This document shows, piece after piece, positions 23,916 through 47,247 of a stretch of DNA of 52,898 nt. The translations under genes and the position numbers were made by a program. The stretch covers positions 1-52,898 of the IMG/VR virus record IMGVR_UViG_3300020468_000009; one strand, 5' to 3'. Source of the DNA: a virus (Duplodnaviria; Caudoviricetes). A model generated the notes under the pieces. That model worked only from the letters and a program-made list of their open reading frames with translations. It was not told where the DNA came from and ran no database searches. Within the stretch, counting starts at the first letter, position 1; every line of letters begins with the position of its first letter.

Positions 23916-25662
23916 CTGCTCCTCCTAACAATGCTGCAAGATTAGGTGGTCCTTGTTGTTGAACTTGTTGTGCTTGTTGTAAGACAGCTTGTTCTTCTGG
24001 ACTAGGTTCTTCACCACTTGCTGTAAAGTATTTTTCTAAAATATCTCCAATGTCTTTTGGATTATTATAGATTTCTACTACAGCCATCATTGCAGCTTTA
24101 TCTCCTTGTTGTGACTGTTGTAACAACATAGAAAATAATATTTCTTCAGTTTTTTGTTTAGTTATTCTTTCATTAATTTGACTTAGATTTTCTAAACCAT
24201 CCATTTCTTGTTGCATAGTTTCTTTGTCTATAATACCTGCCTGTAACAATTGCAACCCAGTAATAATTTTGTTTGGTGCATCAAAAGAAGCCATTGCACC
24301 ATATTTTCTTTTTGTAACATAGTTCTTATCAATATCAGTTCCAGGTGTGTAACTTTCAGAAAAAGACGCACCTTTGTATGTACCACTAATAGGTTTTCTT
24401 TTTTTAGTAAATAATATTTCGTCTAACTCTAATCTTTTAGAATCTACTTCTTGTAATGCATTCTCAAGTATTGTGTGGTATTCAGATACCATTGCTCCAA
24501 CACCTGCTTCAAGTTCTTCTAGTCCTCTACCAGTAACAAAAGAATTTGGTGATATTGCATCATCTTGTACAGGATAACCTGCAACAACTCTTAATTGTCT
24601 TTCTAATCTACCTACGGACTCAAATAATTGATACGGTAGGTTATTGACAGGTTTGACAACTTGTGAACCAGGAGATAAATAATTTATAGAGTTTCTACCT
24701 TTTCTATATTGTCCTGACTCTAGTTCTCCAATAATGTTTGTTTCTGTAAATACTGCATCTTCCATAGCTATAACAGATAAAATATTAATCTTTGCCATAG
24801 ATGCCATAAGTCCTATGACTTGGTCAAATTGACCTTGTAATTTATCAAAGCTAAATCTTTTAGCAATAACAAACGAAGGACCTGACTTAAGTGGGTTAGG
24901 AACAAAATCAACAATTTTTTTAGATGCAGGATGCATAATGTATGTTCCTTCAATATTCATGTATTCAACAATTACTTCACCACTTTCATTTGCATTTTCC
25001 CAACTACCATCATTTGTATATTGGTTAAAAGAAATGTTGTAGTATTGTTCTTGTTTATCTTTATTGTCTTTTTCAAAATAAGCTTTAAGTTCTGGATACA
25101 TTTGAATTAAGTTTTTAACAGGAACTTTTTGTATAATTGCAAGTTCTTGTGGTTCTTGCATATTTCCATAGTATCCAGGAAAGCAATCATATGGATTACG
25201 TAATTCTGCACATGGGTACATGTTTCCATTTGTATCTGGTTTAGATGTTATTACCCATACTGCAAATCCATAACCAGGCAACCATCTAGCTACTTGGGGA
25301 AGTTGTAAATCTAATCTTTGCATTTTATCAAATGCAGTAACAATTCTTTCTAACTTATCTTTTTTACTTTTGTTTCTTTGACTATCTCTTGCATTTGTAA
25401 TATGTACGTCTAATGTAGGTACTTTTCCAATCTTTTGTGCAAGTCTATCTAATGCAGACAATAATAAGTTTGGTGCAGGTAATGTAAAAGAATCCATACT
25501 ATCCATACCTGGACCAAGTAAATCTCTTATGCCATGTTCTCCACCATTAAGAATGTTTCTAAATCTGCTTCTATCAAGAAGACTATCATCATGCATTTGC
25601 TTAAGATATACTGCTCTATCAATTATCTGGTCAGGTGTCAATTTAACTCCATGGTATGTCAT
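23908..25662 (-). CDS. Portal protein
   Basis: 584 aa directly after terminase; NPYDCFP, GQFDQVIG, LLQAGIIDKET, Gln-rich C-terminus. Confidence 0.8.
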   Translation of the reverse strand: MTYHGVKLTPDQIIDRAVYLKQMHDDSLLDRSRFRNILNGGEHGIRDLLGPGMDSMDSFTLPAPNLLLSALDRLAQKIGKVPTLDVHITNARDSQRNKSKKDKLERIVTAFDKMQRLDLQLPQVARWLPGYGFAVWVITSKPDTNGNMYPCAELRNPYDCFPGYYGNMQEPQELAIIQKVPVKNLIQMYPELKAYFEKDNKDKQEQYYNISFNQYTNDGSWENANESGEVIVEYMNIEGTYIMHPASKKIVDFVPNPLKSGPSFVIAKRFSFDKLQGQFDQVIGLMASMAKINILSVIAMEDAVFTETNIIGELESGQYRKGRNSINYLSPGSQVVKPVNNLPYQLFESVGRLERQLRVVAGYPVQDDAISPNSFVTGRGLEELEAGVGAMVSEYHTILENALQEVDSKRLELDEILFTKKRKPISGTYKGASFSESYTPGTDIDKNYVTKRKYGAMASFDAPNKIITGLQLLQAGIIDKETMQQEMDGLENLSQINERITKQKTEEILFSMLLQQSQQGDKAAMMAVVEIYNNPKDIGDILEKYFTASGEEPSPEEQAVLQQAQQVQQQGPPNLAALLGGAVG

Positions 25663-27550
25663 TTAAGTCTAACATATTGTAACCTTCATAACTAGGAGTG
25701 TAATCTAATCCCATATCTGCATATGTTAGTTTTTGCAAGTTTCTAATTACTTTCATTGGAAACCAGCTTGCCATAACTATATCACTTTTATAAGAGTTTT
25801 TATTGCCTTTTGAAGCAAAATATGAAAGTTGTTTTGTGTACGAAATACTCTTAGATTGTGCTTCTGCAGAGTAAAAAGGTAAAACAATTTTATGTTCTGC
25901 AAACATTGGTGCTAATGCTGTTACACCAAATCTTTCATCCCATTTGTTTTTATGTGTTTCGTGACCTTCTAATTTAATTCCATGCATATTTGCAAACTGT
26001 TTTGTAGTTTCATCTTGTCGTATAGCTTTTTGAAAACCATTTTCTTCTATAACCCAGTGATAACATCCATACATATCAAACCATTTTTTAATTAAGTTTC
26101 TTGCTTCTTCTAGTCCTCCACCTTGTTGATTCTCCATATCTACCATTTGTAACTTTATATCATCAACAGATGTTTCGACTGCCCATAAAAATCCTGCTTG
26201 ATATCCTGTAGCAGCTGGGTCAAGTCCTGCAACTAAGTAAGAAGATGCTGGAACGTTGCCTAAATCTATATTTTGGTCATAACATTCTTTAATAACTTCA
26301 GGATTAAACAAAGATAAACCTTTTGCTTGTGCTTTATTTAAATAAACCATCTCAAACCTTTGTACACCACCAGTAGTCATAGCATCACGTTTTCTATTCA
26401 TAAGCCATTTAAAACTTCTTTTATCTTCCCACAACATACATTCTTTATGTTCTTCTTCATCAAACTCTGGTATTACACACATTGAATCATGTGCTTCTTC
26501 TACTATTGTCTCCCATGCTTCGTTTTCTAATAATGCAGAATATAAATCATCAGGATGTTGTCTTGAACCAATAACTACCATTGCTGTATGTTCTTCTTTA
26601 CGAGAGCCTAATGTAGTTGTCCACCAATTTTTTGTATTCTTTCTTGATGCAGGTTGCATAGTAGATGAAAAATCTTCAATGTCATCTGCAATAATTATGT
26701 CACAGTCTCTTGATAGAATCTTACCACCTCTACCTAAACCAACCATTGTAGGTGATTTAATACCTGATACTGTTCTAGTAGATACTGTAAAACCATTCTG
26801 TGACCAAGACTTACCTGTTCTTGTTGCTGGTTTAAAAGAACCATTAGGTCCACAAAAATCTTCTTTTAATTTTTCATTGTTTTCTAATGTATCTAATACA
26901 GAAGATACAGAGTTTTTAGAAATATCTTCGTTACCACCTATCCAAAGTATTCTTATGTTTGGATTTCTACAAATAAGCCATATAACAAAATGTATTAGTA
27001 ATTCTGTTTTGCCGTGTCTTGGTGGTGATAGAATCATTTGTTGTCCACCAGTAAGTAAAGCTTTGTTAATTGACTTAATCCAATTGTTATGAAAGTCTGC
27101 TGTTTCAAAAGGTACACCTAGTTCTGTAAGAAAATATCTATCTCTAAAACCTTTAAATTCTTTTAAAGATTGTTTTGCATCATCAGATAGTTCCCAGTTT
27201 TTTGTTGCTACTTCTGTTTCTATATCTTCTCTATAGGCTGCCATAAGTCTAGCTACATTGCCAACTGTACAACCTAATCCTGCTGCAACTTCTTGTCTAG
27301 TTATCTTTCCGTTAAGAAGTTCTAATGCGTAACCTTCATTAACAAATTTTTCATAATATTGTCCTCTTCTTACTGTTGCAGCTTGTGGTTGATTTACATC
27401 TTTAATTGGTAATACATACTCTTCACCTTTGTCTTTAGCTCTTTTAATACGCATTGATATTCTTCTATAACAAGTTTTAGAACAATATTTTGTTGCGTTA
27501 GGTGGTAATGAATTGTTGCAGTCGTCTGCTATACAGACAACATTTACCAT
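25643..27550 (-). CDS. terL: Terminase large subunit with N-terminal Zn-finger/HTH extension
   Basis: Walker A PPRHGKT, Walker B IIIADDIE, GSRQHPDDLY, nuclease AGLDPA, VIEENGFQK, SDIVMASWF. Confidence 0.93.
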   Translation of the reverse strand: MVNVVCIADDCNNSLPPNATKYCSKTCYRRISMRIKRAKDKGEEYVLPIKDVNQPQAATVRRGQYYEKFVNEGYALELLNGKITRQEVAAGLGCTVGNVARLMAAYREDIETEVATKNWELSDDAKQSLKEFKGFRDRYFLTELGVPFETADFHNNWIKSINKALLTGGQQMILSPPRHGKTELLIHFVIWLICRNPNIRILWIGGNEDISKNSVSSVLDTLENNEKLKEDFCGPNGSFKPATRTGKSWSQNGFTVSTRTVSGIKSPTMVGLGRGGKILSRDCDIIIADDIEDFSSTMQPASRKNTKNWWTTTLGSRKEEHTAMVVIGSRQHPDDLYSALLENEAWETIVEEAHDSMCVIPEFDEEEHKECMLWEDKRSFKWLMNRKRDAMTTGGVQRFEMVYLNKAQAKGLSLFNPEVIKECYDQNIDLGNVPASSYLVAGLDPAATGYQAGFLWAVETSVDDIKLQMVDMENQQGGGLEEARNLIKKWFDMYGCYHWVIEENGFQKAIRQDETTKQFANMHGIKLEGHETHKNKWDERFGVTALAPMFAEHKIVLPFYSAEAQSKSISYTKQLSYFASKGNKNSYKSDIVMASWFPMKVIRNLQKLTYADMGLDYTPSYEGYNMLDLNDIPWS

Positions 27551-29180: not shown

Positions 29181-29710
29181 GCAATAAGTATCTCATCTAC
29201 AATATGGTAGCTAACTGTAATCTCCTTGACTATGTTCGTAGCTAATAAATCCTTTTTGGGGACTAGCATAGTTCGTGAAAAAAAATTTTTATTTTGGGCT
29301 TCTACAATTTTATATTTATTGTCGTACATCCAGTCTATAATGTAAGGCACTAACTCTTGTGGATTCCAGTAATATAAAGTCGAAGTTGGGTATTCCCAGT
29401 AAAATAAGAAATCTGCAAACGTTTTAAGTGCTGCCCCAATTTTCTTTTCTCCGTTGTCCTGGACAATCATTATCTCTAATGCAAAGTTGTCTGTATTTTT
29501 TATCTGTGTATCTGTTTTGACTTCAACGTATCTTGCACCTAATTCATTATTAATAATAAATAAATCTGCACCTTTCATTTGGTCATCGAATGTTACATCT
29601 CTACAAATAAACTGACGTTTGCCTTCATTGTCTGTTTGTGCTTCATAGTATTTTTTAACTAGGGTTTCCCCTTTTTTTCCTATTGCATTTTGTGTTTCGA
29701 AATCGAACAT
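29177..29710 (-). CDS. PD-(D/E)xK restriction-endonuclease-like nuclease
   Basis: GKKGE helix, GADLFI, YVEVKTD, NFALEI; RBS AGGAGG. Confidence 0.75.
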   Translation of the reverse strand: MFDFETQNAIGKKGETLVKKYYEAQTDNEGKRQFICRDVTFDDQMKGADLFIINNELGARYVEVKTDTQIKNTDNFALEIMIVQDNGEKKIGAALKTFADFLFYWEYPTSTLYYWNPQELVPYIIDWMYDNKYKIVEAQNKNFFSRTMLVPKKDLLATNIVKEITVSYHIVDEILIA

Positions 29711-29789
29711 AATCCTCCTGTAAATAACTTGTTTTATTCTAACATGCTGTTTATACTATCCACAACAAATAGTTTTTTTTAACTATAGA

Positions 29790-30111
29790 GTTACAGGTAA
29801 GAGCTATCGGACGGCAAAAAGCTGACTGCATCTTATGGATGGACTGGGATTACCACAAAGTCAGTACCCAAGGACTCTTGAAAGAAAAAAATTCAAAAAA
29901 TATGCATATATGTCCGCTATGCTCGAAAACACACTACACATTCCTACAGTAAATAATACGTGTTTTAACTATACATACTACAAAAACGTGTTAATATACT
30001 ACATAGGGAGACTGGTGTAGTCCTTGTTTGGTAATACCTGTAAGTAACCTGTAACAATAAACATCACGCAAGTGATGGTTCACAAACATCTTGCTGGTCT
30101 CCCACCTTTTT
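29790..30111 (+). ncRNA. Putative structured non-coding RNA of unknown family
   Basis: Multiple stems with plus-strand G-U wobbles, GCAA tetraloop hairpin at 30062-30077, terminal U-run, upstream TATACT at 29752-29757. Confidence 0.5.
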
Positions 30112-30652
30112 CAAAGTAAAAATTACCAGAAAATCCCGAGAACCTTACGTATATACATACCCCACCCCCTATGTTAAAACATAGGTCTGCCCTGTTAACG
30201 CACGGTGCATACCCCCCATTACTCTATAGTTACTCTGTAATCAAACGTTATGTCAATGAAAAGAAACGTAATACTCTAGGTACATACTGTAGTGTTTTGT
30301 ATAACAAATGGTAGCCCTATGCATTGAACCATACAAAGTACAATAAGCCTAGCTAACAGTACGTTATCCCAAGAAAACATTGTCCCCAAGACTGCATTAC
30401 AAAGCCAAGCACTCGTGCATGTCTTTGCCTATATATGCAGTCATTAACGGGGTACTACTACTAGTTCCCCCTACTGAAGTAGCTTTGCTACTTGGTCGGG
30501 GTGGACATCTAGCACATGTTTCCTATTAGTAAAGTATTTTTTCAAAATACCTAGCAATAAAAAAACGCTCACAAGCGTTTTCAATTATTGTTGACAAATA
30601 GGGACAGGTGCTCTTGTCCCCTTAGTAGTAGCTCAGTAGAAAGGATAAAACA

Positions 30653-31033
30653 ATGAGTAATTACGTAAATAAAGAAAAGAACTATGACCCGATTGGCTCG
30701 ACTGGATTCTTTGGCGTTAAACGCCTTAGTGTCCCGAGTAGAAAAGGACAAAGTTCTTTTTATCTTGTTAAGATGAATGACTTTTGGACTTCCAAAAGTA
30801 ATTCTCTTGGAACTGTTATCAATCAAGAGCCTTTAACAAACTATGATTGCATCATACAGTTTGAAGCTCTTGTGAATAACAAGAAGTTCCAACTTAACAA
30901 GAACGGAACAATGCCTAAAGAACTTGTATCCATGATGGGGACTAACGAACTCGCACGCGAATTCGAAGGAGTCCCATCATTAGACCAAATCAAAGAGATA
31001 AAATCTGGTTGGTCTAAAGGTCGTAAGGCATAG
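30653..31033 (+). CDS. Hypothetical early protein (first gene of the rightward arm)
   Basis: RBS AGAAAGGA; TTGACA at 30591-30596; own terminator. Confidence 0.75.
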   Translation: MSNYVNKEKNYDPIGSTGFFGVKRLSVPSRKGQSSFYLVKMNDFWTSKSNSLGTVINQEPLTNYDCIIQFEALVNNKKFQLNKNGTMPKELVSMMGTNELAREFEGVPSLDQIKEIKSGWSKGRKA

Positions 31034-31043
31034 TTCCTATGTT

Positions 31044-31086
31044 GTATAGCTCGGGGGGTTTATCCCCCCTTGCTATATATTTTTTT
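31044..31086 (+). terminator. Rho-independent terminator
   Basis: TATAGC..GGGGGG ttta TCCCCCC..GCTATA followed by a T-run. Confidence 0.7.
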
Positions 31087-31344
31087 GCATTCTGCAAAAA
31101 GTTCTAGCTAGTATCATACCAAAACCTACCCCCCATACAAGAAAGAGAACCCCATACAGACCCAGAAAATTTTTTTTTCTTTCGCATATGCAATGGGGAA
31201 CGGCTCTCTATACACGCGTGAAAGGGGATTGTCAAGTCTTCCCCATACATGAGGAAATTTGCAAAGCAAAAATTTTGGCGTAAGATTTTCGGCAAGACAT
31301 TTTTTGTTCTTAAATTTATTTATATTGTAGAAAGGAAATATATT

Positions 31345-31827
31345 ATGAGTAGAAAAAAGTATGTTCAGCATACGCCTAAGACAAAGAAAGCATTGACTAA
31401 GGTCATTGAGAGAAATGGTAAGTTAGTTCGTATCTATGTAGATACTGGATTACCTATCATCTCTAGTACGGCAGAGTATATGCTAGAAGTAGAGAATGCT
31501 ACTATACCACACACAGATTGTCGGTACTGTGGCAAATCTACAGACGCTATATCAAGCCTATGTTTTGAGTGTAGAGATTTGAACAAGGATTTAGAAATGA
31601 AGATGAAAAGAATTGCTAAGGTAACGAGAGAACAGATTAGAGAAGGAAGTGTTACTGAGACTGATAAAGGATTAGTACCTAAGAAGTTCGGGGTTACTGA
31701 TGGTAGTTGGAAACCATACAGAGATACTCCTGTTATGGAAGAAGATTATCGCACTTGCAGTCGTTGTTACATTGTCTTACCAATTAGCTTTGGTCGTAAA
31801 AGACTTTGTGAAGATTGCAGAAAATAA
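31345..31827 (+). CDS. Protein with two Cys4 zinc fingers
   Basis: CRYC..CFEC and CSRC..CEDC; start probably ATG 31345 with RBS AGAAAGGA. Confidence 0.7.
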   Translation: MSRKKYVQHTPKTKKALTKVIERNGKLVRIYVDTGLPIISSTAEYMLEVENATIPHTDCRYCGKSTDAISSLCFECRDLNKDLEMKMKRIAKVTREQIREGSVTETDKGLVPKKFGVTDGSWKPYRDTPVMEEDYRTCSRCYIVLPISFGRKRLCEDCRK

Positions 31828-31834
31828 AGCTAAG

Positions 31835-32230
31835 TAATTAGCTAGAGTACATAGCCTATACAAGTTAGCCCTTTGTTTACGGGGTTATGTACTCTGTGGT
31901 AATTATATTCATAGAGTGGATATGCCTTTCTACAACCCTGTAGACATACCAACTACTACTAGATATGTCCACTCTGTGAAGCTACCTACCATAAGACCAA
32001 AGGTAACGTTGCGTGTATTGTGGGCTTCATTTCCCACTCCTTTCTCAACGTTGCCTGTAGGTAGCTAGATACTCATACAGAACTATGTTCTCCCTTATAA
32101 AAAATGTTATTAGTCGTGTGGGTATCTAGCTATCTATTCCAAAAGATAGCAATCATGACAAGTTCGGTAATGGGCTAGTTAATTCAGTAGTGCCTCCTTA
32201 AGTGCTAAAGAAAAACTAGCCCTTGCCGAG
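31835..32230 (+). ncRNA. Tandem array of five long hairpins with anti-Shine-Dalgarno loops (putative antisense sRNA array)
   Basis: Five abutting hairpins with 13-21 bp of stem each; non-canonical stem pairs are mostly plus-strand G-U; loops contain CCCTTT, CCTTTCT, CTCCTTTCT, CTCCCTT, CCTCCTT. Confidence 0.65.
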
Positions 32231-32255
32231 AACCATAGAAAGAGAGAGATATATT

Positions 32256-32405
32256 ATGATATGTGATTTGTGTCATCAAGACACATACATGAAACTAATG
32301 ATAGAAGCAAACGTCAAAAGCTCTGTATATCACAGAGTTATGTGTCGTACTTGTGGCTATCAAACAGTTAAAAGAATGAATACAAAGAAAGGTGGTGTTT
32401 ATTAA
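32256..32405 (+). CDS. Small zinc-ribbon protein
   Basis: MICDLC...MCRTCG; start probably 32256. Confidence 0.65.
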   Translation: MICDLCHQDTYMKLMIEANVKSSVYHRVMCRTCGYQTVKRMNTKKGGVY

Positions 32406-32935
32406 TGCCCGTAGATAAAGTACCCAATGATGGAAAAGATGCTAGAGAATATAAAAAGCATGTTAGAAGTCTGGGTTTTGAGAACCATTTGCAGTATCGA
32501 CCTACAAGGTTGAAGACAATATATGGGGCTAATGTAGTACAGATTACTTCTAATGAAGAAAATGTATCTAAGCATAAGTTCTCTATTGAAGCTGCGAATT
32601 ATCCAGAAGCTATGACAAAGCTCTGGGAAACAATGATACAAACTGCTGTTGCAACACAGCTCAAAGCGATTGGCTCTTTGATGAAAGCGTTACTAAAAGA
32701 CCAAGACTTTGCAACTACAGAACAACTTGTAGAGAATGTTAGCGATATGCTAACTGATAGCGACTTTGCAGAAACGTTCTTTGATGCGTTGTATCATACG
32801 CAACCCGACATGATTGTCTTAGGTAATCCTGAGATTGTTGGCTCTATGCAAGTAGGAACTGTTGATGAAAGTCAAGCTAGTGATATTGTAGAGAAGCTAA
32901 TCAAAGATGTGTTGGGGGGTGATGAAGAAGAATGA
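32405..32935 (+). CDS. Hypothetical early protein
   Basis: 176-aa ORF, RBS AAAGGTGG, TAATG coupling. Confidence 0.7.
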   Translation: MPVDKVPNDGKDAREYKKHVRSLGFENHLQYRPTRLKTIYGANVVQITSNEENVSKHKFSIEAANYPEAMTKLWETMIQTAVATQLKAIGSLMKALLKDQDFATTEQLVENVSDMLTDSDFAETFFDALYHTQPDMIVLGNPEIVGSMQVGTVDESQASDIVEKLIKDVLGGDEEE

Positions 32936-33078
32936 TAGATATGCAATGTACTAAAGTTCTAAGCCACGAGAAAGAGTGGATTAAATGCGAAAGACCAATA
33001 AAGAATATTGGTTTCTGGAAACATGATGACCACATTTATAGACTTGCTTGTGAAGAACATAGGGAAGGAGGAAGTTAG
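32932..33078 (+). CDS. 48-aa Cys/His protein (not in ORF track)
   Basis: MIDMQCTKVLSHEKEWIKCERPIKNIGFWKHDDHIYRLACEEHREGGS; ATGA coupling. Confidence 0.55.
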   Translation: MIDMQCTKVLSHEKEWIKCERPIKNIGFWKHDDHIYRLACEEHREGGS

Positions 33079-33080
33079 TA

Positions 33081-33260
33081 ATGAATGAAGAAATTGTATC
33101 AATCAATGGCGACATTATAAGTGTTACTGTTGATGATGATTTGTATCTTAGAGTAAAACTCGGGATAACAGAGAAGTATCTTACTGAAGAACAGTTAGCA
33201 GAAGTCAATGATAGGACAGAGCAAGCTGTTACAGAGATACTTAGAAAGGAAGAAGAATGA
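33081..33260 (+). CDS. 59-aa acidic protein (not in ORF track)
   Basis: MNEEIVSINGDIISVTVDDDLYLRVKLG...EILRKEEE; RBS AAGGAGG. Confidence 0.65.
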   Translation: MNEEIVSINGDIISVTVDDDLYLRVKLGITEKYLTEEQLAEVNDRTEQAVTEILRKEEE

Positions 33261-33472
33261 CCGTATACGAGTACATTACTTCTATTAATAATAAGAAAAC
33301 AAATGAGCTAACTGTTGATTTTATCTTTGATATTGAGACTTCAAAGAGTTCTGCTATAGAACAAATTGATATGTTAGTTCAACTAGCCAATGATAATGAG
33401 AACATAAAGTTCTTAGCTCATGAGCCAAAGTTCTTTGAAAAGAGCAAGTGGTCGGAAGTAGAAGAAGAATGA
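33257..33472 (+). CDS. Hypothetical protein
   Basis: 71-aa ORF, RBS AGAAAGGA, ATGA coupling. Confidence 0.65.
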   Translation: MTVYEYITSINNKKTNELTVDFIFDIETSKSSAIEQIDMLVQLANDNENIKFLAHEPKFFEKSKWSEVEEE

Positions 33473-33612
33473 TATGTAAACATTGTAGTCAAGAAGTTAA
33501 TAAAGCAGTTGTGTCAATAGATGATATATTAGCACACCCTGATATAACTCTTGATGTAGATTATTGGTTAGAACAATCACATAAAGAAGAATGTAAAGGA
33601 GTAAAACTATGA
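33469..33612 (+). CDS. 47-aa CxxC...HxxxC protein (not in ORF track)
   Basis: MICKHCSQEV...WLEQSHKEECKGVKL; ATGA coupling at both ends. Confidence 0.6.
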   Translation: MICKHCSQEVNKAVVSIDDILAHPDITLDVDYWLEQSHKEECKGVKL

Positions 33613-34142
33613 CAGATGAAGATAGTGATATTAAAGAGTTGAGTGGGAAACTAACTAACTGTGCTATTACAGTAGATATACTTAGGTATCTCAATGACTT
33701 GGCTATTGATATGGAATACAACAGAAGTCTTAATCCAGAGTTTCTTGATGAGACTATGGATACAGAACTAGCTATGAAAATGGACTTAGTTGCTGATACT
33801 AGATTTCCTGTTGTTGTATTGATGGCTACACCTCACTACTACAAACAAGGAACAAGAACAGATATGCACGTAAGACTAATGCTTGATGTTGTTGTTAAAA
33901 GTAAAGTCGGTGCAAAACTAGATAAGGAATATGCAACAGTTACTATTGATGTTCCTTTGGAAGCAATTAATCATCTACCAAATATCCCAGAGATAAGGTG
34001 GATTGATACGGCTTCTACCGACAGAAAGAAATGGAAAGAAGTATGGGACAACGTTGATAAAGATAAGTTAAGTGAAAACTTTATCAAAGACTTTGAAACG
34101 TACTTAGATAATGAAAGGGAAGAAAGAGATGAAGAAGAATAA
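33609..34142 (+). CDS. Hypothetical acidic protein
   Basis: 177-aa ORF, RBS AAAGGAG. Confidence 0.7.
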   Translation: MTDEDSDIKELSGKLTNCAITVDILRYLNDLAIDMEYNRSLNPEFLDETMDTELAMKMDLVADTRFPVVVLMATPHYYKQGTRTDMHVRLMLDVVVKSKVGAKLDKEYATVTIDVPLEAINHLPNIPEIRWIDTASTDRKKWKEVWDNVDKDKLSENFIKDFETYLDNEREERDEEE

Positions 34143-34818
34143 TTGGGAATTGCTAGACCTAGTTATTGCTTGTTCGCCAAGAATACTTTTGTATGGTGTT
34201 GCTGGCACGGGCAAAACTTATCAAGCTAATACCCTGAAACTAAAGAAAAATCAAAAGAGCTACAATACTACACTTACGGCAGACAGCACGGCAAGTGAAT
34301 TGATGGGGCATTATATAGCTACTGACAAAGGTGGTTTTGTCTGGCAAGATGGTGTAGGTATTAAAGCTTGGAAAGAAGGTGCAAGACTTGTTATCAATGA
34401 GATAGACCATGCTGGTGTAGATGTTATGACATTCCTACATGCTCTATTAGATGACAAAGAGTTCGCAAAGTTTACTTTACCTAATGTAGATAAAGAAACT
34501 GTAAGACCAGACACAAACTTTCAAGTTATTGCAACTATGAATGGTGTGCCTGATGACTTACCAGAGCCACTTGCAGATAGATTTCCTATCAAGTTAGAGA
34601 TTGATGAAGTACATGAGAGTGCTTTGAACTCTCTACCTGATAAGTTGAAAGCTGTTTACTACGACTACAACAACGGACAGTACTCTGTTCGTAAGTGGAT
34701 TGCTTTCAAGCAGTTGCTAGATAGTGGTATTGATGAACAACAAGCGTGTGCAGTTGTATTCAAAGATGATGCCTATGATATTCTTGAAGCACTAGGTGTG
34801 CAAGATGTCATTATTTAG
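34129..34818 (+). CDS. MoxR/CobS-like AAA+ ATPase
   Basis: Walker A GVAGTGKT, Walker B LVINEID, FQVIATMN, LPEPLADRF, SVRKW. Confidence 0.88.
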   Translation: MKKNNWELLDLVIACSPRILLYGVAGTGKTYQANTLKLKKNQKSYNTTLTADSTASELMGHYIATDKGGFVWQDGVGIKAWKEGARLVINEIDHAGVDVMTFLHALLDDKEFAKFTLPNVDKETVRPDTNFQVIATMNGVPDDLPEPLADRFPIKLEIDEVHESALNSLPDKLKAVYYDYNNGQYSVRKWIAFKQLLDSGIDEQQACAVVFKDDAYDILEALGVQDVII

Positions 34819-36445
34819 TAATAGTGTAAAAGGCTCAATCAAAGTTAAAAGCCAAAAATTACTTCCTAACCTATCTCTTGTAGGTAATGAAGTTAGGAAA
34901 CATGAAGTTGTATATTCTACAACCCCATGGGAAGAAGAACTAAAAGACAGAAATGTAATTGCAGTTCCTAAATCTATGTTGAGTACTACAAGGAAAGACA
35001 GAGAGAATGTAATTAAGGCTCTTATATTGAAGCATAAGTTATTCAAAGGTTGGCGTTTCCGTAACAAGAACCCAGAGTATTTATATTATGCTTTATATCT
35101 TTGGTCGCTCAAAAGACATAAGCACTATCAAAGGGAAACTAGAAAGAAGTTACTTACGGAAGATGAAATCCGTAGTTTAACCTTCTTAGACCGAGATACA
35201 GAAGATAAAGATGAATTGTCTTATGAGCAGAAAAGATTGATTGAGCTAGTAAAAGATGTTGAGTTTCCTGTTATGGACGCGAAATTGTATGAGATTTCGC
35301 TAATGAGATTGATTGGAAACTTATATCGTACTAACAATGTTGATATGTTTATTAAGGAATACGTTAGAGAAAATATCTTTACAAAGTATTCTTACAAAGC
35401 AAACAACAGAGAGATAGTAGAAGTTGCAGTTCAAAGTAATATTGATGTACGTTTACCACAACATGTAGCGTTACAAGATAGAAGCTTTCTTAACATGCTA
35501 GTAGAATATTGCATGTACAAAGTGCAATCTACACAACGATATGCTATGAATACATACACGGGATATTGGGATTGGGACGAAGTAAAAAAGACATGGACAA
35601 GAAAAGAATATTGGAATAAATCTAAGGTAAGACATAGAATTAACAATATTTACAAATTGCTTGTTAAAAAGCCAATGTCTAATTCAATATCACAAGGTGG
35701 ATTACCTAGTGCAGATTATCAAGAAGTGCCAGAAGAAGATATGGTACTTAAATTACCACCAGAAATCAAAGGCAAACTTGCTGATGAAATTATGGAAGAT
35801 GCCGACAGAAAGCATAAGACTGCTTTTGATTGGTATCAAGGTAATGGTGTTCATGGTAATGCTATGTTGCACAAGTTCAATGGAACTAGGAAGATACACA
35901 AAGCTATTAGAGAGCTTAGGCGAAACAATAGTGATGTAGGTGTTGTACCTAGAAACATGCACAGAATGACTACCGACCGAAAAGTTTTCTCTACTAAGAG
36001 AAGCGTAGCAGGGGGTAGCATGCTGATAGATTGTTCTGGAAGTATGGGCTTAACAATGAGAGATGTTGAAGAAATTGTCAATAATTTACCAGCTAGTACT
36101 ATAGCTGGTTATGTTGGATTTCCACATGAAGTAAATGGTATTCATGGCGACATTCGTATCATTGCACAGAACGGCAGAATTAGTGATGAAGCTATGCAAG
36201 AATTACAAAATCATGGATACAACTCCATTGATAAAGAAGCTCTTGAATGGCTAGCTAAACAACCAGAGCCACGAATATGGGTAAGCGACCAACAAGTTGT
36301 TGGTGTTACCGAGAAAGGTGGACACCCTACTAATCTTACCAAACATGGTTTAGATGAAATTAAAAGTATTATGTTACAAAACAACATAATACCTATTGAA
36401 GATGAAGAACAAGTTAAGGCAGTAGCTAAGAAACTTGCCTTATAA
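34805..36445 (+). CDS. VWA-domain (CobT-like) partner of the AAA+ ATPase
   Basis: MIDAS LIDCSGSM, IWVSD; directly follows the MoxR-like ATPase. Confidence 0.75.
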   Translation: MSLFSNSVKGSIKVKSQKLLPNLSLVGNEVRKHEVVYSTTPWEEELKDRNVIAVPKSMLSTTRKDRENVIKALILKHKLFKGWRFRNKNPEYLYYALYLWSLKRHKHYQRETRKKLLTEDEIRSLTFLDRDTEDKDELSYEQKRLIELVKDVEFPVMDAKLYEISLMRLIGNLYRTNNVDMFIKEYVRENIFTKYSYKANNREIVEVAVQSNIDVRLPQHVALQDRSFLNMLVEYCMYKVQSTQRYAMNTYTGYWDWDEVKKTWTRKEYWNKSKVRHRINNIYKLLVKKPMSNSISQGGLPSADYQEVPEEDMVLKLPPEIKGKLADEIMEDADRKHKTAFDWYQGNGVHGNAMLHKFNGTRKIHKAIRELRRNNSDVGVVPRNMHRMTTDRKVFSTKRSVAGGSMLIDCSGSMGLTMRDVEEIVNNLPASTIAGYVGFPHEVNGIHGDIRIIAQNGRISDEAMQELQNHGYNSIDKEALEWLAKQPEPRIWVSDQQVVGVTEKGGHPTNLTKHGLDEIKSIMLQNNIIPIEDEEQVKAVAKKLAL

Positions 36446-36481
36446 TAATAGGCTATAACTCTCTTTCTAGTCTATTGAAAG

Positions 36482-36513
36482 ATAGCTCGGTGTAAAAGCC
36501 GAGCTATTTTTTT
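36482..36513 (+). terminator. Rho-independent terminator
   Basis: ATAGCTCGG tgtaaaag CCGAGCTAT followed by a T-run. Confidence 0.8.
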
Positions 36514-36600
36514 ATTCTCCCTTATGCATTGCATATTTATTAATCAAGAAATAATCATTTGGTTGTTGTAATCAGCAAACAATCAGCTTATAATAAGCGT

Positions 36601-36876
36601 ATGAACACAGAAAATACTAAACAAGATATTGAAAAAGCTATTGCTAAAGCTACTGCAAAAGTACAAGGTGGGCAACAGCATTGGTATGAAAGGTTGCCTA
36701 AAGAAGCTTTACCTTTTATAAATACACTTGCAGACAGGGTGGAAAATCACGGACAGAAAGCCAACGCTAGAGTTGTTAGCGAAATACTAATGGATAAGTA
36801 TAATTTCGCAGTATCACGTAGCAGAGTGCGATTATGGTTAGTTGAACTAGAGAAACGCAATGCCGAAAAAAATTGA
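36601..36876 (+). CDS. Small putative DNA-binding (HTH-like) protein, probably leaderless
   Basis: ANARVVSEILMDKYNFAVSRSRVRLWL; TATAAT (36589-36594) 6 nt before ATG 36601. Confidence 0.6.
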   Translation: MNTENTKQDIEKAIAKATAKVQGGQQHWYERLPKEALPFINTLADRVENHGQKANARVVSEILMDKYNFAVSRSRVRLWLVELEKRNAEKN

Positions 36877-37924
36877 TACAGAATTAGCAAAGCTTATAGC
36901 TGAAGCTGAAAGCGATAAGATAAAAGATTTAAAAGATACAAATGCCAGACTACTCAAACAGATTGACAAACTCAAAGATAAGAAAGCCGACATGGTAGAA
37001 GCCGTGTTTTCTGGTGCTAGAGATGGAATGAGAACACTTCAATTTCCAGATATATCTAATCCTAAAATCAAACACAAACCCAAAACACAAACAGAAATCT
37101 GTGTCCCCTTGCTCTCGGATATTCAGCTCGCAAAGAGAACCCCAGACTACGACACTGCTACTGCAGAAGTTAGAGTCAGAAGATATGCAGAAAAGATAGT
37201 CAAACTTACAGAAATCAAAAGAGCTTCTATGAATGTAGATAAATGTGCAGTCTTATGTCTAGGTGACATTGTTGAGGGTGAGCTTATATTTCCAGGACAG
37301 TCACATTTAATAGACAGTTCTTTATATAGACAAGTGACAGTTGATGGTCCAAGAATATTGCATACGTTTTTCTCTATATTATTAGAAAATTTTAAAGAAG
37401 TAGACGTATACTGGGTAATAGGTAATCATGGAGCTTTGGGTGGTAGGTCTCGTAGAGATTACAACCCTGAGACAAACGCTGATAGAATGTTAGGAAAGAT
37501 ACTACAGACAATGTTTGCGTCAGAGAAACGCATCAAGTTTGTTATCCCTGAAGGCGTTGATAATCACTGGTATACAGTTGCTAGACTTGGTCCAAAAGCC
37601 AAGTTTTTTTGTTTTCATGGAGATAATATTCGTGGAAGTATGGGTGTACCATTCTATGGTTACAACAAAAAAATACTGGGTTGGAAAGCACTTGCATCAC
37701 AAGGGCTGATGGAAGACTTTACACACGCAGTCTGCGGTCATTATCACACACCAACATCTTTATATATTAATGATGTACGTGTATGGGTTAATGGTTCGAC
37801 AGAAAGTTATAATAGCTATGCACAAGAACAACTAGCAAGTATGGGTAGACCTTCACAATTTTGTTTGTTTGTGAAACCTACTAAAGGAGTTACTGCTGAG
37901 TATCTTGTCAATTTAGAGGAATAA
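36860..37924 (+). CDS. Calcineurin-like metallophosphoesterase with N-terminal coiled coil
   Basis: LSDIQ, LGDIVEG, GNHG, FHGD, GHYH, VNGS motifs. Confidence 0.85.
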   Translation: MPKKIDTELAKLIAEAESDKIKDLKDTNARLLKQIDKLKDKKADMVEAVFSGARDGMRTLQFPDISNPKIKHKPKTQTEICVPLLSDIQLAKRTPDYDTATAEVRVRRYAEKIVKLTEIKRASMNVDKCAVLCLGDIVEGELIFPGQSHLIDSSLYRQVTVDGPRILHTFFSILLENFKEVDVYWVIGNHGALGGRSRRDYNPETNADRMLGKILQTMFASEKRIKFVIPEGVDNHWYTVARLGPKAKFFCFHGDNIRGSMGVPFYGYNKKILGWKALASQGLMEDFTHAVCGHYHTPTSLYINDVRVWVNGSTESYNSYAQEQLASMGRPSQFCLFVKPTKGVTAEYLVNLEE

Positions 37925-38071
37925 ATGAGTACAAAAACAAAAGTGGTTGCCGTTGAGTATGCAGGGGTTGGAAGTATACCTCAGTTTATTGTAAAAATAG
38001 ACGGCTCATATCAATATGTACCTGTGAAAACAGGAGTAAATCCTATTGATGTACTATTAGAAGAAGAATAA
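37925..38071 (+). CDS. 48-aa hypothetical protein (not in ORF track)
   Basis: MSTKTKVVAVEYAGVGSIPQFIVKIDGSYQYVPVKTGVNPIDVLLEEE; RBS GAGG. Confidence 0.6.
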   Translation: MSTKTKVVAVEYAGVGSIPQFIVKIDGSYQYVPVKTGVNPIDVLLEEE

Positions 38072-38094
38072 AGCTAATACAAAAGGAGAGTGGA

Positions 38095-38868
38095 ATGGCG
38101 AAATTCAATTTGGACGACTATGAATTGGTCGAAGATAGATTAAAAAAATATTGGAAAGATAATCCTGAAGGAAGGATAGAAACAAACGTTGTACACATTA
38201 CTGATGATGGTTCATGTGTAACCATAAAAGCAGAAATTATGGACAACGAAGGAAGACTTGTAACTACAGGTATTGCACAAGAGACTAAAGGAGATGGTTT
38301 TGCAAACACTACATCATGGATGGAGAACTGTGAAACATCTGCTATAGGTAGAGCGTTGGCAAATTGGAAGTATCAAGGTAGTAAGAACAGACCTAGTCGT
38401 GAAGAAATGATGAAGGTTCAGAAAAATTCAGTAACGCCAACCACTGATAAAAAGGAGAAGGACATTGCTCAGGAGGATGGGAAAAAGGCTATGCCTCCGT
38501 CCTCCACTTCTCCAATAGAGCAAATAAAAGAAGCAGGATTTGGTGATACAAAAGGTTCTAAACATCCTAATGGTGCTTTAGCTATTGATGAAGATGGACT
38601 TATTTGTCCTTGTGGTTCTAACGCAAGAGTTAAATATTACAAAGCACATGAGAAAAGTAAACCTAAAAGTCCTGACTTTAGATGTCAAGCAATGGGACAA
38701 TGTACAGCAGGAGATACAGTAGATGGTAAAGTATTTGCTAAATCTTGGTGGATGGATAATAAAGAAACACCAGAAGCTTGGAAAGACTTTGCTGCAGTAC
38801 AAAATGGTATGTCATTACCTAAAGCAAAATCATTAGATGATATAAAACCAGGAGAAGCTCCCTTTTAA
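38095..38868 (+). CDS. Putative ssDNA-annealing protein (Rad52/Sak-like) with C-terminal Zn ribbon
   Basis: DYELVEDRL, TGIAQE, ENCETSAIGRALAN, SREEM; CPCG..SPDFRC..C; C-terminal EAPF tail. Confidence 0.6.
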   Translation: MAKFNLDDYELVEDRLKKYWKDNPEGRIETNVVHITDDGSCVTIKAEIMDNEGRLVTTGIAQETKGDGFANTTSWMENCETSAIGRALANWKYQGSKNRPSREEMMKVQKNSVTPTTDKKEKDIAQEDGKKAMPPSSTSPIEQIKEAGFGDTKGSKHPNGALAIDEDGLICPCGSNARVKYYKAHEKSKPKSPDFRCQAMGQCTAGDTVDGKVFAKSWWMDNKETPEAWKDFAAVQNGMSLPKAKSLDDIKPGEAPF

Positions 38869-39864: not shown

Positions 39865-40047
39865 TTACTTTCGGAAGCCTATTGTTAGTAACCATATACC
39901 TAATGTTATTATAGTGGCTAACCCAGTAACTTGCTGGGCAGAACCAGTTAATGTAAGTGTAGCTATAACTAAACCAACCAAAGTCCAACTTAGGTTAAGA
40001 GTTTCTTTTATAGCTTCTACAAACCAGTTCCATAATCTATTTATCAT
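39865..40047 (-). CDS. Small two-TM membrane protein
   Basis: WTLVGLVIATLTLTGSAQQVTGLATIITLGIWLLTI; ATGA-coupled to the acidic protein. Confidence 0.7.
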   Translation of the reverse strand: MINRLWNWFVEAIKETLNLSWTLVGLVIATLTLTGSAQQVTGLATIITLGIWLLTIGFRK

Positions 40048-42128
40048 ATTTGTTTCCTAAACATAAACGCAGCCATACTTGCTATTCTAGTCAAAATTAC
40101 AGGGACTACCACCTCTTGTGCTTTTTCTTTCTGGTCAGATGTCATATCATTTCCTATAGTTGCAATACTTATATCTTCAAAATCTATATCTACAAAAGTT
40201 TCTATTGGATTCTCTAAGAATGTTTCAAACTGTACCTCTGTTACTACGTCAGCAAGTGTGTAGTTTTCTACATCTGCATTCTCTACAGCTCTTTCAACGT
40301 ATTCTTCTACAGCTTCTGCTACAACTTCATCCTCTTGTATTGCTTCTGCAATGATTTCAACGTCTTCAGTCTGTACCTGTAGTACCTCAGCAACAACCTC
40401 AACTTGTTCTTCAGTAAGTATTTCAATATCATCAATAGCCTCCTCCACTACAGCCTGTATGACCACCTGTGTTTCCTCGGTGGCTTGAGATAGATTTTGT
40501 ACACCTATATCATTTACCTCTTCAAGAACTTCTACAACTTCTTCGGTGTCGAGTTCTTGCACAAAAGTTTCAATAACTTCTTCGATTTGTTCATCTGATA
40601 AATCTTCTTCCTCTATATCAGGTATCTCTATTATTTCTTCTAGTTCTTCAATCTCTTCTTCAACCATCTCTTCAGTAAGTACCTCTTCAATCTCCTCGGC
40701 AATATCTTCCACCTGTAGAACTTCAGGTTCTTCATTGTCATCTCTTCGTATATCCTTTTCGAGTAACTCATCTTTATCTTCTTTTATTTTCTCTTGAACT
40801 TCTTCTAAATCATTTTGTATATCTTCTTCAGAAGGTGGGAACAAATCTGTTTCTATATAAAATTCTACCATATCTATCTCTATTTCTTCTATATCCTCTA
40901 TAATTACAAACTCAAACTCTTCTAAATCTTCTAAATACTCTTCTACTTCTATGATTGTGTCTATGTATTCATCCATTTGTTCTTCAGATTCAAACTCCAA
41001 TATCTCAATCTCTTCTTCATATTCAAGTTTCTTAACATCTCTTTCCATTTGTCTGTCAAGCTCTTCAATCTCTTCATCTGTAAGTTCAACTTCCACATAC
41101 TCAGGTATATCAACATCATCAAAAAACTCTTCTCCGATTTCTGATTCCATAATTTGTAACTCATCTTGTTCATAATCTCTTTCAAGTTGTTCATCAGTTA
41201 ACTCAACTCCATACATTTCTAGGTTATTTTGTCTCTGTTGGTCTCTTTCTAATGTACCATCATCTATTTCTCTTTGTGAATATTCTACAATTTCACCACT
41301 ATCTAGCTCTATAGGTATATCTTTTATTTCTTCAGGTGGAATTATAAATATAGGTTCAGGCTCAGGTTCGGGTTCGGGTGGTGGCGGTAATGTAGTTGTG
41401 GTTGTTGTTGGTTGTATGTACTTAAATGATATGTCATCAAGTAGTGACCAGTCATTTATTGTTATTGTAAAGCTATCTATAAATGTATCTAAAGTGTCGT
41501 AAATGTTATAAACTACATCTTCAAACATAGTCTGTATGTTGCTGTTGCTTTGCCCTTCTAAAACATTCTCTTGTGTAGTTTCATCTGTATGTGTGTATGT
41601 AACTGTGCCATCATTATTTAATGCACCGATTCTAAAACCTACTTCATATATATCTATGTCTAATACTTCATCATCAACTGTTGTTGTATCAGGTAAGGTA
41701 AATATATAATCATTACTACTATCGCCATGTCTTTGATAATGTAAATTCATATGATAGTCAGTCATTCCACAGCACTGCCAATTACCATTACTGTGTTGGT
41801 CATCTATTTGTATATTGTTATCTACTTCATTACCTTGACTATCTAATTCATCTTCAGGTAAAACTATATCTGTAGTTTGTTCGTATGTATCAGGCACAGT
41901 TGTAGTAGTAGTTGTTGTAGTTGTGTCTGTGTTATTAGGAATAGTTGTGGTCGTAGTTGTTTCATCAGGACCATCAAATGTCTCTATCTCTTCTACTTCT
42001 CCAGGTATAGTCGTAGTAGTAGTTGTCGTTGTTGTAGTTGTATTATCTTCTTCATTAGCTAACGCTGAGAGCGGTAACATAACAAGAGATACTACTAACC
42101 ACCATTGCAGCAGCCGTGTCCGCAGCAT
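40044..42128 (-). CDS. Large acidic secreted / membrane-anchored protein
   Basis: Signal peptide (..LSALA), poly-Thr and PPPPEPEPEP linkers, long Glu/Asp-rich region, C-terminal VVVPVILTRIASMAAFMFRK. Confidence 0.8.
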   Translation of the reverse strand: MLRTRLLQWWLVVSLVMLPLSALANEEDNTTTTTTTTTTTIPGEVEEIETFDGPDETTTTTTIPNNTDTTTTTTTTTVPDTYEQTTDIVLPEDELDSQGNEVDNNIQIDDQHSNGNWQCCGMTDYHMNLHYQRHGDSSNDYIFTLPDTTTVDDEVLDIDIYEVGFRIGALNNDGTVTYTHTDETTQENVLEGQSNSNIQTMFEDVVYNIYDTLDTFIDSFTITINDWSLLDDISFKYIQPTTTTTTLPPPPEPEPEPEPIFIIPPEEIKDIPIELDSGEIVEYSQREIDDGTLERDQQRQNNLEMYGVELTDEQLERDYEQDELQIMESEIGEEFFDDVDIPEYVEVELTDEEIEELDRQMERDVKKLEYEEEIEILEFESEEQMDEYIDTIIEVEEYLEDLEEFEFVIIEDIEEIEIDMVEFYIETDLFPPSEEDIQNDLEEVQEKIKEDKDELLEKDIRRDDNEEPEVLQVEDIAEEIEEVLTEEMVEEEIEELEEIIEIPDIEEEDLSDEQIEEVIETFVQELDTEEVVEVLEEVNDIGVQNLSQATEETQVVIQAVVEEAIDDIEILTEEQVEVVAEVLQVQTEDVEIIAEAIQEDEVVAEAVEEYVERAVENADVENYTLADVVTEVQFETFLENPIETFVDIDFEDISIATIGNDMTSDQKEKAQEVVVPVILTRIASMAAFMFRKQI

Positions 42129-42141
42129 TCCATATTACCTC

Positions 42142-42327
42142 CTACATTAGTGCGTTGACCAACACCACCAATGCAGAGCCTGCAACCAACCAACCACTTA
42201 ATTCTTGTCGTGATATTTTTGAGTTTACTTTTTCGTGAAGTAAATCAATTCTTTCGTTTGTTTTTTCTTGTGTTTCAATAATTATATTGAGCAACTCTTT
42301 ATTTGTATAACCATTACCATTACTCAT
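42142..42327 (-). CDS. Small coiled-coil + TM protein (allele of 959..1144)
   Basis: Near-identical protein, divergent DNA. Confidence 0.7.
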   Translation of the reverse strand: MSNGNGYTNKELLNIIIETQEKTNERIDLLHEKVNSKISRQELSGWLVAGSALVVLVNALM

Positions 42328-42449: not shown

Positions 42450-42456
42450 CAAAAGA

Positions 42457-45257: not shown

Positions 45258-45273
45258 TCTCCACCTATGTTAG

Positions 45274-47246: not shown

Positions 47247-47247
47247 A

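Follow-up and report, generated by a model that had tools for sequence, protein, structure and literature searches.

Little is known of the non-coding RNAs of phages in general, and next to nothing of those carried by uncultured marine phages. The subject of this article is a gap of 430 bases (positions 31828-32257) in the early operon of the IMG/VR virus record IMGVR_UViG_3300020468_000009, the whole of which (52,898 nt) is referred to here as the window. The gap is tiled with a chain of hairpins, and comparison with related phages shows it to be a member of a widespread, phage-specific family of hairpin arrays in which conserved stems (clamps) enclose exchangeable inserts (cargo). The kind of element is already known, namely phage intercistronic structured or processed RNA; what is new is an array family with this clamp-and-cargo anatomy. 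A literature search at the level of titles and abstracts found no description of such arrays.

The closest described systems differ from the array in distinct ways. The early region of phage T7 has RNase III processing hairpins in its polycistronic mRNA; a classical RNase III substrate is a duplex of about 20 bp, or roughly two helical turns, and in many cases has an internal loop. The early mRNA of phage SP82 likewise carries RNase III processing hairpins (cited in PMC4838370). As at the T7 and SP82 sites, the hairpins considered here lie between early genes, are on the gene strand, have a sequence conserved among sites, and would be expected to be cut and to leave protective hairpins behind; unlike those sites, which are single and spread between genes, 2-9 hairpins abut in one cluster per genome and enclose inserts of 13-179 nt. 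DicF is a small RNA located between cistrons of a prophage operon, released by RNase III/E and with a known target. It appears in the reference list of PMC12197685. A small RNA between the cistrons of a phage operon is also what is proposed here, but DicF is a single unit with a known target, whereas the array has many units and is known from sequence alone.

Other regulatory RNAs are alike in part. Staphylococcal regulators of the RNAIII and RsaE type have C-rich loops that pair with Shine-Dalgarno (SD) sequences, and are autonomous transcripts with their own promoter and terminator. The array shares with them several hairpins that show C-rich unpaired motifs able to pair with an SD, but one or two of its five loops behave as anti-SD elements and the RNA is embedded in an operon. 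CsrB/RsmZ and CrcZ are protein-sponge RNAs; these too are multi-hairpin RNAs with short recurring loop motifs, which in the array are C/U-rich and heterogeneous. As in CRISPR arrays, conserved repeats alternate with variable inserts and the number of units differs between close relatives; here, by contrast, the repeats are inverted and pair across the insert, and the inserts are structured, partly conserved and without a match to other phage DNA (11 loops against 1.9 Mb). GOLLD and ROOL are presented in a preprint as large, ornate, phage-associated RNAs (bioRxiv 10.1101/2024.12.08.627333). The array resembles them, as they are portrayed there, in being a highly structured phage-borne non-coding RNA, and differs from that portrayal in having no Rfam match and in being built as a row of exchangeable hairpins instead of a single integrated fold.

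The Array and Its RNA Fold

The gap lies between two plus-strand genes, one ending at 31827 and the other starting at 32258. The original prediction, made by a model from the letters of the window, placed five abutting inverted repeats in it (hairpins HP1 to HP5), and all five are found at those positions; two further hairpins, 31828-31843 and 32128-32150, lie outside that list. The features of the gap are as follows.

31828-31843, plus strand: mini-hairpin AGCUAA-GUAA-UUAGCU in the minimum free energy (MFE) fold, forming the 5' edge of the array; five of its six pairs invariant in five sequences
31844-31896, plus strand: HP1, with a 13-bp stem (31844-31856 / 31883-31895), an inner 5-bp stem and an apical loop containing GCCCUUU
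31908-31980, plus strand: HP2, with a 17-19-bp stem; repeat within 31897-31923 / 31965-31991
31980-32066, plus strand: HP3, with clamp 31980-31989 / 32057-32066 and inner stem 32001-32011 / 32046-32056
32063-32131, plus strand: HP4, with a second clamp type, AGCUAGAUACUCAUAC / GUGUGGGUAUCUAGCU, of 16 bp; repeat 32058-32078 / 32116-32136
32128-32150, plus strand: empty clamp, AGCUAUCUAU-UCCAAA-AGAUAGC
32163-32230, plus strand: HP5, with a stem of 8 + 9 bp (32172-32180 / 32214-32222) and loop GUGCCUCCUUAAG
32231-32257, plus strand: purine-rich leader and ribosome-binding site (RBS) of the next gene, GAACCAUAGAAAGAGAGAGA...AUG; nearly invariant in five sequences; a leader like it in L018 and L216-218

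The stems in the window are 10-19 bp long. HP2 has an apical region of 40 nt, invariant in five sequences, that includes a 6-bp inner hairpin. HP3 consists of a lower stem, an internal loop and an upper stem: its clamp, AGCUACCUAC / GUAGGUAGCU, is the commonest clamp type of the family, and its fast-changing cargo comprises an 11-bp stem, a small G/C hairpin and the C/U tract CUCCUUUCU; it also appears in a listing of terminator-like structures. The cargo of HP4 is conserved (GUUCUCCCU ... UUGUUA), and the loop of HP5 is the sole one to carry the canonical anti-SD core (CCUCC). Unpaired bases of the array are poor in G (0.085) and rich in A (0.39), a bias common to most structured RNAs. The pentamer AGCTA had been noted at several hairpin junctions, and AGCTA or TAGCTA does occur at 31839, 32062 and 32127; where hairpins of the window abut, at 31980, 32063 and 32128, they share AGCU. 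The description of the stems as largely unrelated is correct in part, but HP3, HP4 and the hairpin at 32128-32150 have the base AGCUAnnUAY in common, and it is these stem bases that recur as conserved repeats in relatives.

The fold of the plus strand has an energy of -157.3 kcal/mol, compared with -97.6 ± 6.2 kcal/mol for 100 dinucleotide shuffles, none of which folds as well (z -9.66); the minus strand reaches -123.9 kcal/mol (z -4.02). This difference between the strands confirms the claim that the non-Watson-Crick stem pairs are G-U on the plus strand. When 844 windows of 200 nt from the whole genome are ranked by plus-strand stability, 10 of the top 25 fall on the array, where the minus strand folds far less stably. 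The structure is real, far beyond chance and strand-specific.

Covariation and Turnover among Close Relatives

Six related contigs give five distinct versions of the gap, of type A (the window and L011), type B (L002/L013 and L012) and type C (L003/L014), with gap lengths of 419-622 nt in the close relatives. The folds of L002 and L003 have a z of -10.6 on the plus strand, and of -3.9 and -5.4 on the minus strand. When the fold of the window is projected onto the alignment of the five sequences, 96.3% of 490 cells pair, and 12 of 100 pairs show a change in both partners. Shuffled columns give 7.6 ± 1.5 such pairs, and none of 500 shuffles reaches 12; sliding the partners by 1-3 columns leaves 0-3 double changes. 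Three of the double changes (UA/CG, AU/GC, and GC/AU) fall in the HP2 stem, while its 40-nt apex is invariant. In HP3 the outer stem, or clamp, is invariant and the inner 11-bp stem has six pairs changed on both sides, including U-G to U-A and U-A to U-G. The 16-bp stem of HP4, compared in six sequences (three further contigs), alternates between C-G and U-A in two of six and between U-G and C-G in two of six, and contains a series A-U / G-U / G-C. In sequencing runs X17 and X18 a variant (32046 C>T) replaces a G-C pair with G-U. Fold score, strand asymmetry and compensatory changes together bear out a plus-strand, non-coding structured RNA element in the early operon.

Pairing is kept while the contents of the hairpins turn over. 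In type B the apex of HP1 is swapped for another small stem, and in a homologue of HP1 in L018/L216 the letters of the stem have changed with pairing kept (as judged by eye) and the loop GCCCUUUGU retained. Types A, B, and C each have a different inner hairpin in HP3, and the same cargo architecture is found in type C and in L217/L218. Between the window and L011, whose flanking proteins are 98% identical, there are 7 changes in 32017-32041 (the HP3 apex) and 17 in 32151-32171, compared with 1-6 changes per 100 nt elsewhere.

Whole units also come and go. The hairpin at 32128-32150 corresponds to the closing stem of a branched domain of 170-230 nt in types B and C that is missing from the window, and in type B a module with a loop-E-type internal loop sits exactly where the window has its empty clamp; a second empty clamp is found in L018/L216. 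HP5 is present in the window, L011 and type B (there with another loop), is absent from type C and L018/L216-218, and has a lower stem that is not kept in L011. In nhmmer searches the single hairpins of the window find matches solely in L015 and L018. The view of the array as several independent hairpin units whose number varies among related phages fits what these relatives show.

A Family of Clamp-and-Cargo Arrays

More distant relatives were reached through the large terminase, which has 1206 homologues at E<=1e-20 (59-97% identity among the best 120 of the 1206); a terminase profile search of IMG/VR yielded 80 loci. The order p126-p160-gap-p49-p176 is kept in L015, L018, L023, L025, and L027, where the slot is in the early operon, divergent from the terminase side. 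In L018, L023, L025, and L027 the upstream protein is 31-46% identical and the gap is about 440-630 nt. The gaps of the distant relatives are likewise chains of hairpins; of 11 arrays folded, all 11 are more stable on the early strand.

Two clamp types recur on the gene strand. In the first, AGCUAUCUAY pairs with RUAGGUAGCU (family stem AGCUAYCUAY / RUAGRUAGCU, with a fixed U-G pair); it is found in L018, L023, L025, L027, L030, L079, L090, and L091, and in the window in HP3 and the empty clamp 32128-32150. In the second, AGCUUGUAGCACAU pairs with GUGUUACAAGCU, with a fixed wobble pair of its own. The two types alternate and abut: the 3' arm of each stem runs, through a shared AGCU, into the 5' arm of its neighbour, and together they make up one repeat of 20 nt. 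The second clamp (AGCUUGUAGCACAU / GUGUUACAAGCU) is absent from the window, where HP4 fills that slot with a different stem sequence; the HP4 type of junction occurs in six IMG/VR contigs. Because L018/L216 carry stems of the HP4 type and of the common type in one array, the window is linked to the family.

The common 19-nt clamp junction is found in at least 120 viral contigs, against one contig (3 kb, from a metagenome-assembled genome) in 185,579 prokaryote genomes. The 121 loci contain 152 junction sites, of which 143 have a closing arm within 200 nt; these 143 enclose 118 different insert sequences, 13-179 nt long with a median of 61.5. When 84 distinct arrays are parsed by motif, each has 1-9 clamp hairpins, by a rule that misses diverged stems such as that of HP4. 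The family is uncurated and belongs to uncultured marine phages of about 40 kb.

Clamps and cargo evolve in different ways. The clamps keep their sequence, fixed G-U pairs included, in phages with diverged genes, whereas the cargo is in some cases a conserved structured module and in others is replaced outright between near-identical phages. L025 and L027 are identical at 396 of 400 positions upstream of the array and at 72 of 74 and 75 of 75 positions in the clamp modules, but the insert of the second-type hairpin is unrelated (26 of 66); L027 also has one unit more than L025. L079, L090 and L091 have flanks that are about 57-82% identical, first and last modules that agree at 69-71 of 70-73 positions, and unrelated inserts between them. 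One insert is shared by L023 and L091, and another by L027 and L046.

The commonest cargo module, of 60-70 nt within the common clamp, is represented by L002:2512-2572 and by copies at 17 further loci. Its internal loop (AGUARGAG facing CYGAAAG), which we take to be of the loop-E or bulged-G-like kind, is invariant, as is the apical motif, GCCCUGUU; the helix covaries at five pairs in 18 distinct sequences. The module has no Rfam match and could be an RNA motif in its own right. Hairpins resembling a tRNA T arm (GGTT[CG][AG]A..CC) are seen in inserts of L217 (early strand, 4850-4970), L218 and others, in 11 of 106 loci against none on the other strand. Upstream of three arrays there are small open reading frames (ORFs) on the early strand (L079, ~12995-13160; L090, ~12958-13140; L091, ~5063-5197) that match, by eye, a 90-nt insert family found inside clamps elsewhere; as they resemble clamp inserts and are flanked by pairable purine-rich and C/U-rich arms, they are probably RNA modules, not genes.

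Possible Functions of the Array

The reading that we favour, with moderate confidence, is a composite one: the gap would be an early, co-transcribed, non-coding array of small structured RNAs carried on processing or scaffold stems, the cargos being the working parts. Co-transcription is suggested by flanking ORF clusters that all run on the array strand, by arrays that end ahead of an SD and start codon (35 of 84) and, in the window, by the lack of a bounding promoter or strong terminator. As it overlaps in part with the alternatives considered below, the likelihoods given to the several readings do not add up to a whole. The array presumably acts as RNA. Its clamps may be recognised by a sequence- or shape-specific factor, most simply a host double-strand endoribonuclease, much as at the RNase III sites of SP82 and T7 early RNA. 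The clamps would then be recognition or cut sites for a host double-strand-specific endoribonuclease of the RNase III type, or else rigid scaffolds. A cut at the clamps would divide the early RNA and leave the flanking messages with protective hairpins, and it would free the cargo hairpins as stable small RNAs, or at any rate expose them. The cargos may act on host or phage partners through their conserved, single-stranded, G-poor and C/U-rich loops; SD sequences are plausible partners for HP5 only, and perhaps for HP3 and HP2.

Several points weigh against the composite reading. The clamps, at 10-16 bp, are shorter than classical RNase III substrates unless neighbours stack (~20-24 bp). Their letter-for-letter conservation could equally be explained by DNA-level recombination linkers, and G-T pairs also stabilise single-stranded DNA of the array strand, so that strand asymmetry alone is no proof of RNA. 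The HP1, HP2, and HP5 modules of the window are found in close relatives alone. Figures for enrichment at the level of the family are inflated, since the array sequences are related by descent. No partner was found for any cargo when 11 cargo loops were compared by BLAST with 1.9 Mb of related phage DNA; there was no significant antisense or sense match except for copies of the same module (L091/L023 and L046). Nor does any neighbouring protein, as a possible partner, recur in all 121 loci, the commonest being an AAA ATPase in 48 of them. Two of 24 sequencing runs are metatranscriptomes (X20 and X19), each with a small share of words, and their contigs cover downstream coding sequence (32265-32428 and 32644-32798) and not the array, which says nothing either way on its transcription; the array is spanned by contigs of X18 (RNA by guess only) and X17 (DNA).

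A bolder reading, possible but on the unlikely side, is that of a cassette rack. The clamps would serve both as RNA processing signals and as DNA homology arms, and phages would acquire, lose and swap from genome to genome small structured RNAs that act as decoys or guides against host factors or defences.

A purely cis-acting leader is also a tentative candidate. The hairpins would punctuate or protect the early mRNA, through cuts of the RNase III type, as 3' or 5' stabilisers or as a shield that keeps Rho off a long untranslated stretch, and might tune translation of the next gene, the loops being without a function of their own. In favour of this, the loops vary freely. All arrays are intercistronic and on the gene strand, and the real flanking ORF clusters of the 121 loci are all on the array strand; 35 of 84 arrays end directly before an SD and start codon, with an open frame within 60 nt. 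Against a leader of this kind, there is one array per genome and not a hairpin at every gene pair, and some cargos (69-71 of 70-73 nt) are more conserved than the neighbouring genes (about 57-82%). Cargos also contain invariant unpaired motifs that a mere barrier does not need, and the apical 40 nt of HP2 stay invariant while the stem around them changes.

A decoy or sponge RNA, which would titrate a host RNA-binding protein or an RNA-targeting defence, with the turnover of cargo reflecting an arms race, has a similarly modest chance of being right. Related G-poor, C-rich loop motifs recur in several hairpins (CCCUUU, CCUUUC, and CCCUGU), and CCCTGTT is strongly biased in strand: 60 of 106 loci have it on the array strand and 4 on the opposite one. 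The internal loop of the most conserved cargo is of the loop-E type, a common protein-binding module. The one-sided occurrence of T-arm-like hairpins (11 of 106 loci against 0), the hypervariability of cargo within near-identical phages and the location of the arrays in the early region point the same way. On the other side, the motifs are heterogeneous, unlike those of CsrB-type sponges, with their uniform GGA motifs; and ARAGORN calls no tRNA or tmRNA in the window and no tRNA in the 121 array-bearing loci.

The original prediction itself read the array as a precursor cut into small RNAs that block RBSs through anti-SD tracts in their loops, a guide array without repeats directed at messages of the host or the phage. 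Taken as the account of the whole array, this is unlikely, and the anti-SD reading is weakly supported. The SD sequences of the phage genes are strong (AGGAGG, AAGGAG, and GAAAGGA), which favours the model, and every loop string quoted in the prediction is present; enrichment of the tracts over chance was not found. The window has 4 sites for anti-SD 5-mers against 2.0 ± 1.3 in 1000 dinucleotide shuffles (p 0.12) and 6 for 4-mers against 5.75 (p 0.52), and the corresponding counts are 2 against 2.0 in L002 and 3 against 1.4 in L003. Retention of the tracts in relatives, another expectation, is partial: the HP1 tract is lost in type B, that of HP3 is changed and HP5 is absent from type C. A C/U tract is kept, however, in HP3-type cargos of several relatives, although the tract of HP3 may alternatively be the U/C tail of a weak terminator.

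Pairing of the loops with start regions separates one hairpin from the rest. Each loop was paired by RNAduplex with 43 phage start regions and compared, by mean energy, with 100 shuffles per loop. HP5 (CCUCC) pairs better than 100 of 100 shuffled loops (p 0.00), its best duplex being with the gene 40044-42128 (-23.5 kcal/mol), and HP3 is borderline (p 0.08), whereas HP1 (p 0.90), HP2 (p 0.55), and HP4 (p 0.42) do no better than shuffled loops.

The HP2 loop has a perfect 11-nt complement (31925-31935) to the RBS of the gene directly upstream (31325-31335); two further RBSs that have (U)AGAAAGG in common, those of the genes at 30653 and 33257, are complemented over 9 and 8 nt. Complementarity to three early genes speaks for the anti-SD model, but no start region is perfectly complementary to the array over more than 11 nt, a length that 139 of 1000 shuffled arrays also reach (P 0.139). 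Perfect complements of at least 10 nt between arrays and their own genomes occur in about the number expected by chance, and one alone, that of the HP2 loop, is on a start region.

Across 108 distinct arrays (44.3 kb) anti-SD 6-mers are enriched, at 52 against 18.5 ± 5.3 (the highest of 200 shuffles has 36), and for CCTTTC the count is 28 where 2.8 are expected. At least one anti-SD 6-mer is present in 38 of the 108 arrays (15 expected). The other 70 have none; SD-like 6-mers are enriched as well (123 against 53.5), and the most conserved loop motif of the family, GCCCUGUU, is no anti-SD. RBS-blocking RNAs would, moreover, also target the phage's own genes. A promoter and terminator of its own, expected for a discrete SD-blocking small RNA, are lacking in the window, where no promoter and no strong terminator bounds the array. 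Sites resembling promoters show no enrichment (26 against 35.2 ± 5.8), and an intrinsic terminator follows 1 of 101 distinct 3' ends by a crude rule that misses the U-run seen by eye after L079, L090, and L091. A loop rich in C/U is a real feature of certain modules (HP3-type cargos and HP5) without being the principle common to all. As to the guide array having neither repeats nor Cas genes, no Cas family was found among the proteins scanned, which covered part of the ORFs, but the stems are, at the level of the family, conserved inverted repeats.

A DNA-level element, in which the RNA fold is incidental and the gap consists of recombination or cassette-exchange sites, cruciforms or part of a replication origin, is very unlikely. 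It would account for sequence-conserved clamps that flank exchanged inserts, for the occurrence of empty as well as filled clamps and for the palindromic junction TAGCTA. The wobbles, however, are all G-U on the gene strand, so that in 11 of 11 arrays the opposite strand loses 20-60 kcal/mol of folding energy; pairing is maintained by compensatory changes, some of which pass through G-U intermediates; and conserved unpaired motifs are on one strand only. No direct-repeat iterons turned up in the array. Its hairpins abut with no ORF between them, in contrast to integron attC sites, which are separated by ORF cassettes, and no integrase surfaced in the protein-family scans made, which took in part of the ORFs. 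Nor are there, as in CRISPR, direct repeats of 25-40 nt with unique spacers.

The gap had been described as free of genes, and no conserved ORF accounts for 31828-32257. Four ORFs of 31-50 amino acids (aa) overlap it. Three of these, the plus-strand ORF 31916-32068 and the minus-strand ORFs 31877-31972 and 31930-32037, are each frame-shifted or stopped in three of four relatives. A small protein from the fourth, a 36-aa minus-strand ORF (31842-31952), can be dismissed almost entirely: it is open in five of five gap versions, with a 6-nt indel in type B that stays in-frame, but it has a TTG start with no SD ahead, is opposite in strand to all early genes, overlaps stems with compensatory changes and differs at 6 of 36 residues between the window and L003 over a stretch of few base changes, so that no purifying selection is visible on it (no formal dN/dS).

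Known RNA classes do not account for the gap either. At gathering score none of the 4227 Rfam models matches the window, and at E up to 10 the region 31600-32500 gives chance-level matches to miRNA precursors alone (best E 0.48). Eight relatives have no match at gathering score, nine more loci have none at E<=0.05, and the array of L091 has none that is relevant. Motifs were also compared by eye with hammerhead cores, BoxA/nut sites, attC sites and rut sites, and no kinship to any of these is proposed.

Genome Setting

The ORFs at 1274-11418 are repeated at 42457-52592, and positions 1-11715 and 41184-52898 of the window are the ends of a concatemer; from the repeat offset of 41,183 the record contains about 1.28 copies of a genome of about 41.2 kb, which is probably circularly permuted or terminally redundant. 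The minus strand carries late and structural genes, including those for the large terminase (25643-27550) and the major head protein (10291-11418), and the plus strand an early block (30653-38868), where GC and AT skew change sign. The terminase is at most 24.5% identical to those of cultured phages, mostly Streptomyces phages, and blastn of the array region against 50,697 phage records gave no match; on these comparisons the phage is one without a close cultured relative. The genes that flank the array are as follows.

31345-31827, plus strand: upstream early gene for a Cys-rich protein with four CxxC pairs, 160 aa from the likely start (160/192-aa ORF)
32258-32405, plus strand: downstream early gene for a 49-aa zinc-ribbon protein

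The stop codon of the upstream gene lies directly before, or within, the first mini-hairpin. The 160-aa protein matches no Pfam or PHROG family and has merely two homologues in a search of 5.8 billion proteins; the flanking proteins are restricted to a small clade. Homologues of the 49-aa zinc-ribbon protein are encoded 3' of the array in L018, L023, L025, L027, L026, L028, and L032.

The divergent late and early blocks are divided by a stretch of 940 nt without ORFs (29711-30652), which may hold further RNAs or a control region; the region 29700-31360 is 95% identical across types A, B, and C, which exceeds the conservation of the neighbouring proteins. Within it, 30000-30652 has a fold z of -5.8, C-rich tracts and a bidirectional terminator-like hairpin at 30562-30581. 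The adjoining 126-aa ORF (30653-31344) looks coding (the single change checked is at a third codon position), yet has a fold z of -9.96. Of all 200-nt windows in the genome, 30901-31100 is the most stable on either strand (-76.7 / -76.5), with a strong intrinsic terminator at 31052-31072.

Two ORFs on the minus strand have features of their own. A 2208-aa ORF (16695-23324) matches no PHROG family and has a sub-threshold Pfam match to cpYpsA SLOG (E 4.6e-4). The large terminase has a Cys-rich N-terminal extension in which C5, C10, C22, and C26 are invariant in 15 sequences, and its homologues are in some sources labelled YacG-like or Zn-ribbon.

Significance

The arrays make up a modular RNA family, defined by sequence and covariation in at least 120 viral contigs, that stands outside the curated RNA families. 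The clamp sequences provide a simple probe for these phages and their RNAs in ocean metatranscriptomes. If the hairpins do nothing more than process or stabilise the message, they would still be the largest such cluster described and a handle on early gene expression in abundant phages. If the inserts are truly released as small RNAs, decoys or guides, the arrays would be a novel means by which phages carry RNA tools and exchange them, and if the clamps also act as a cassette rack, an RNA-only counterpart of integron- or CRISPR-like arrays that would serve host takeover or counter-defence.

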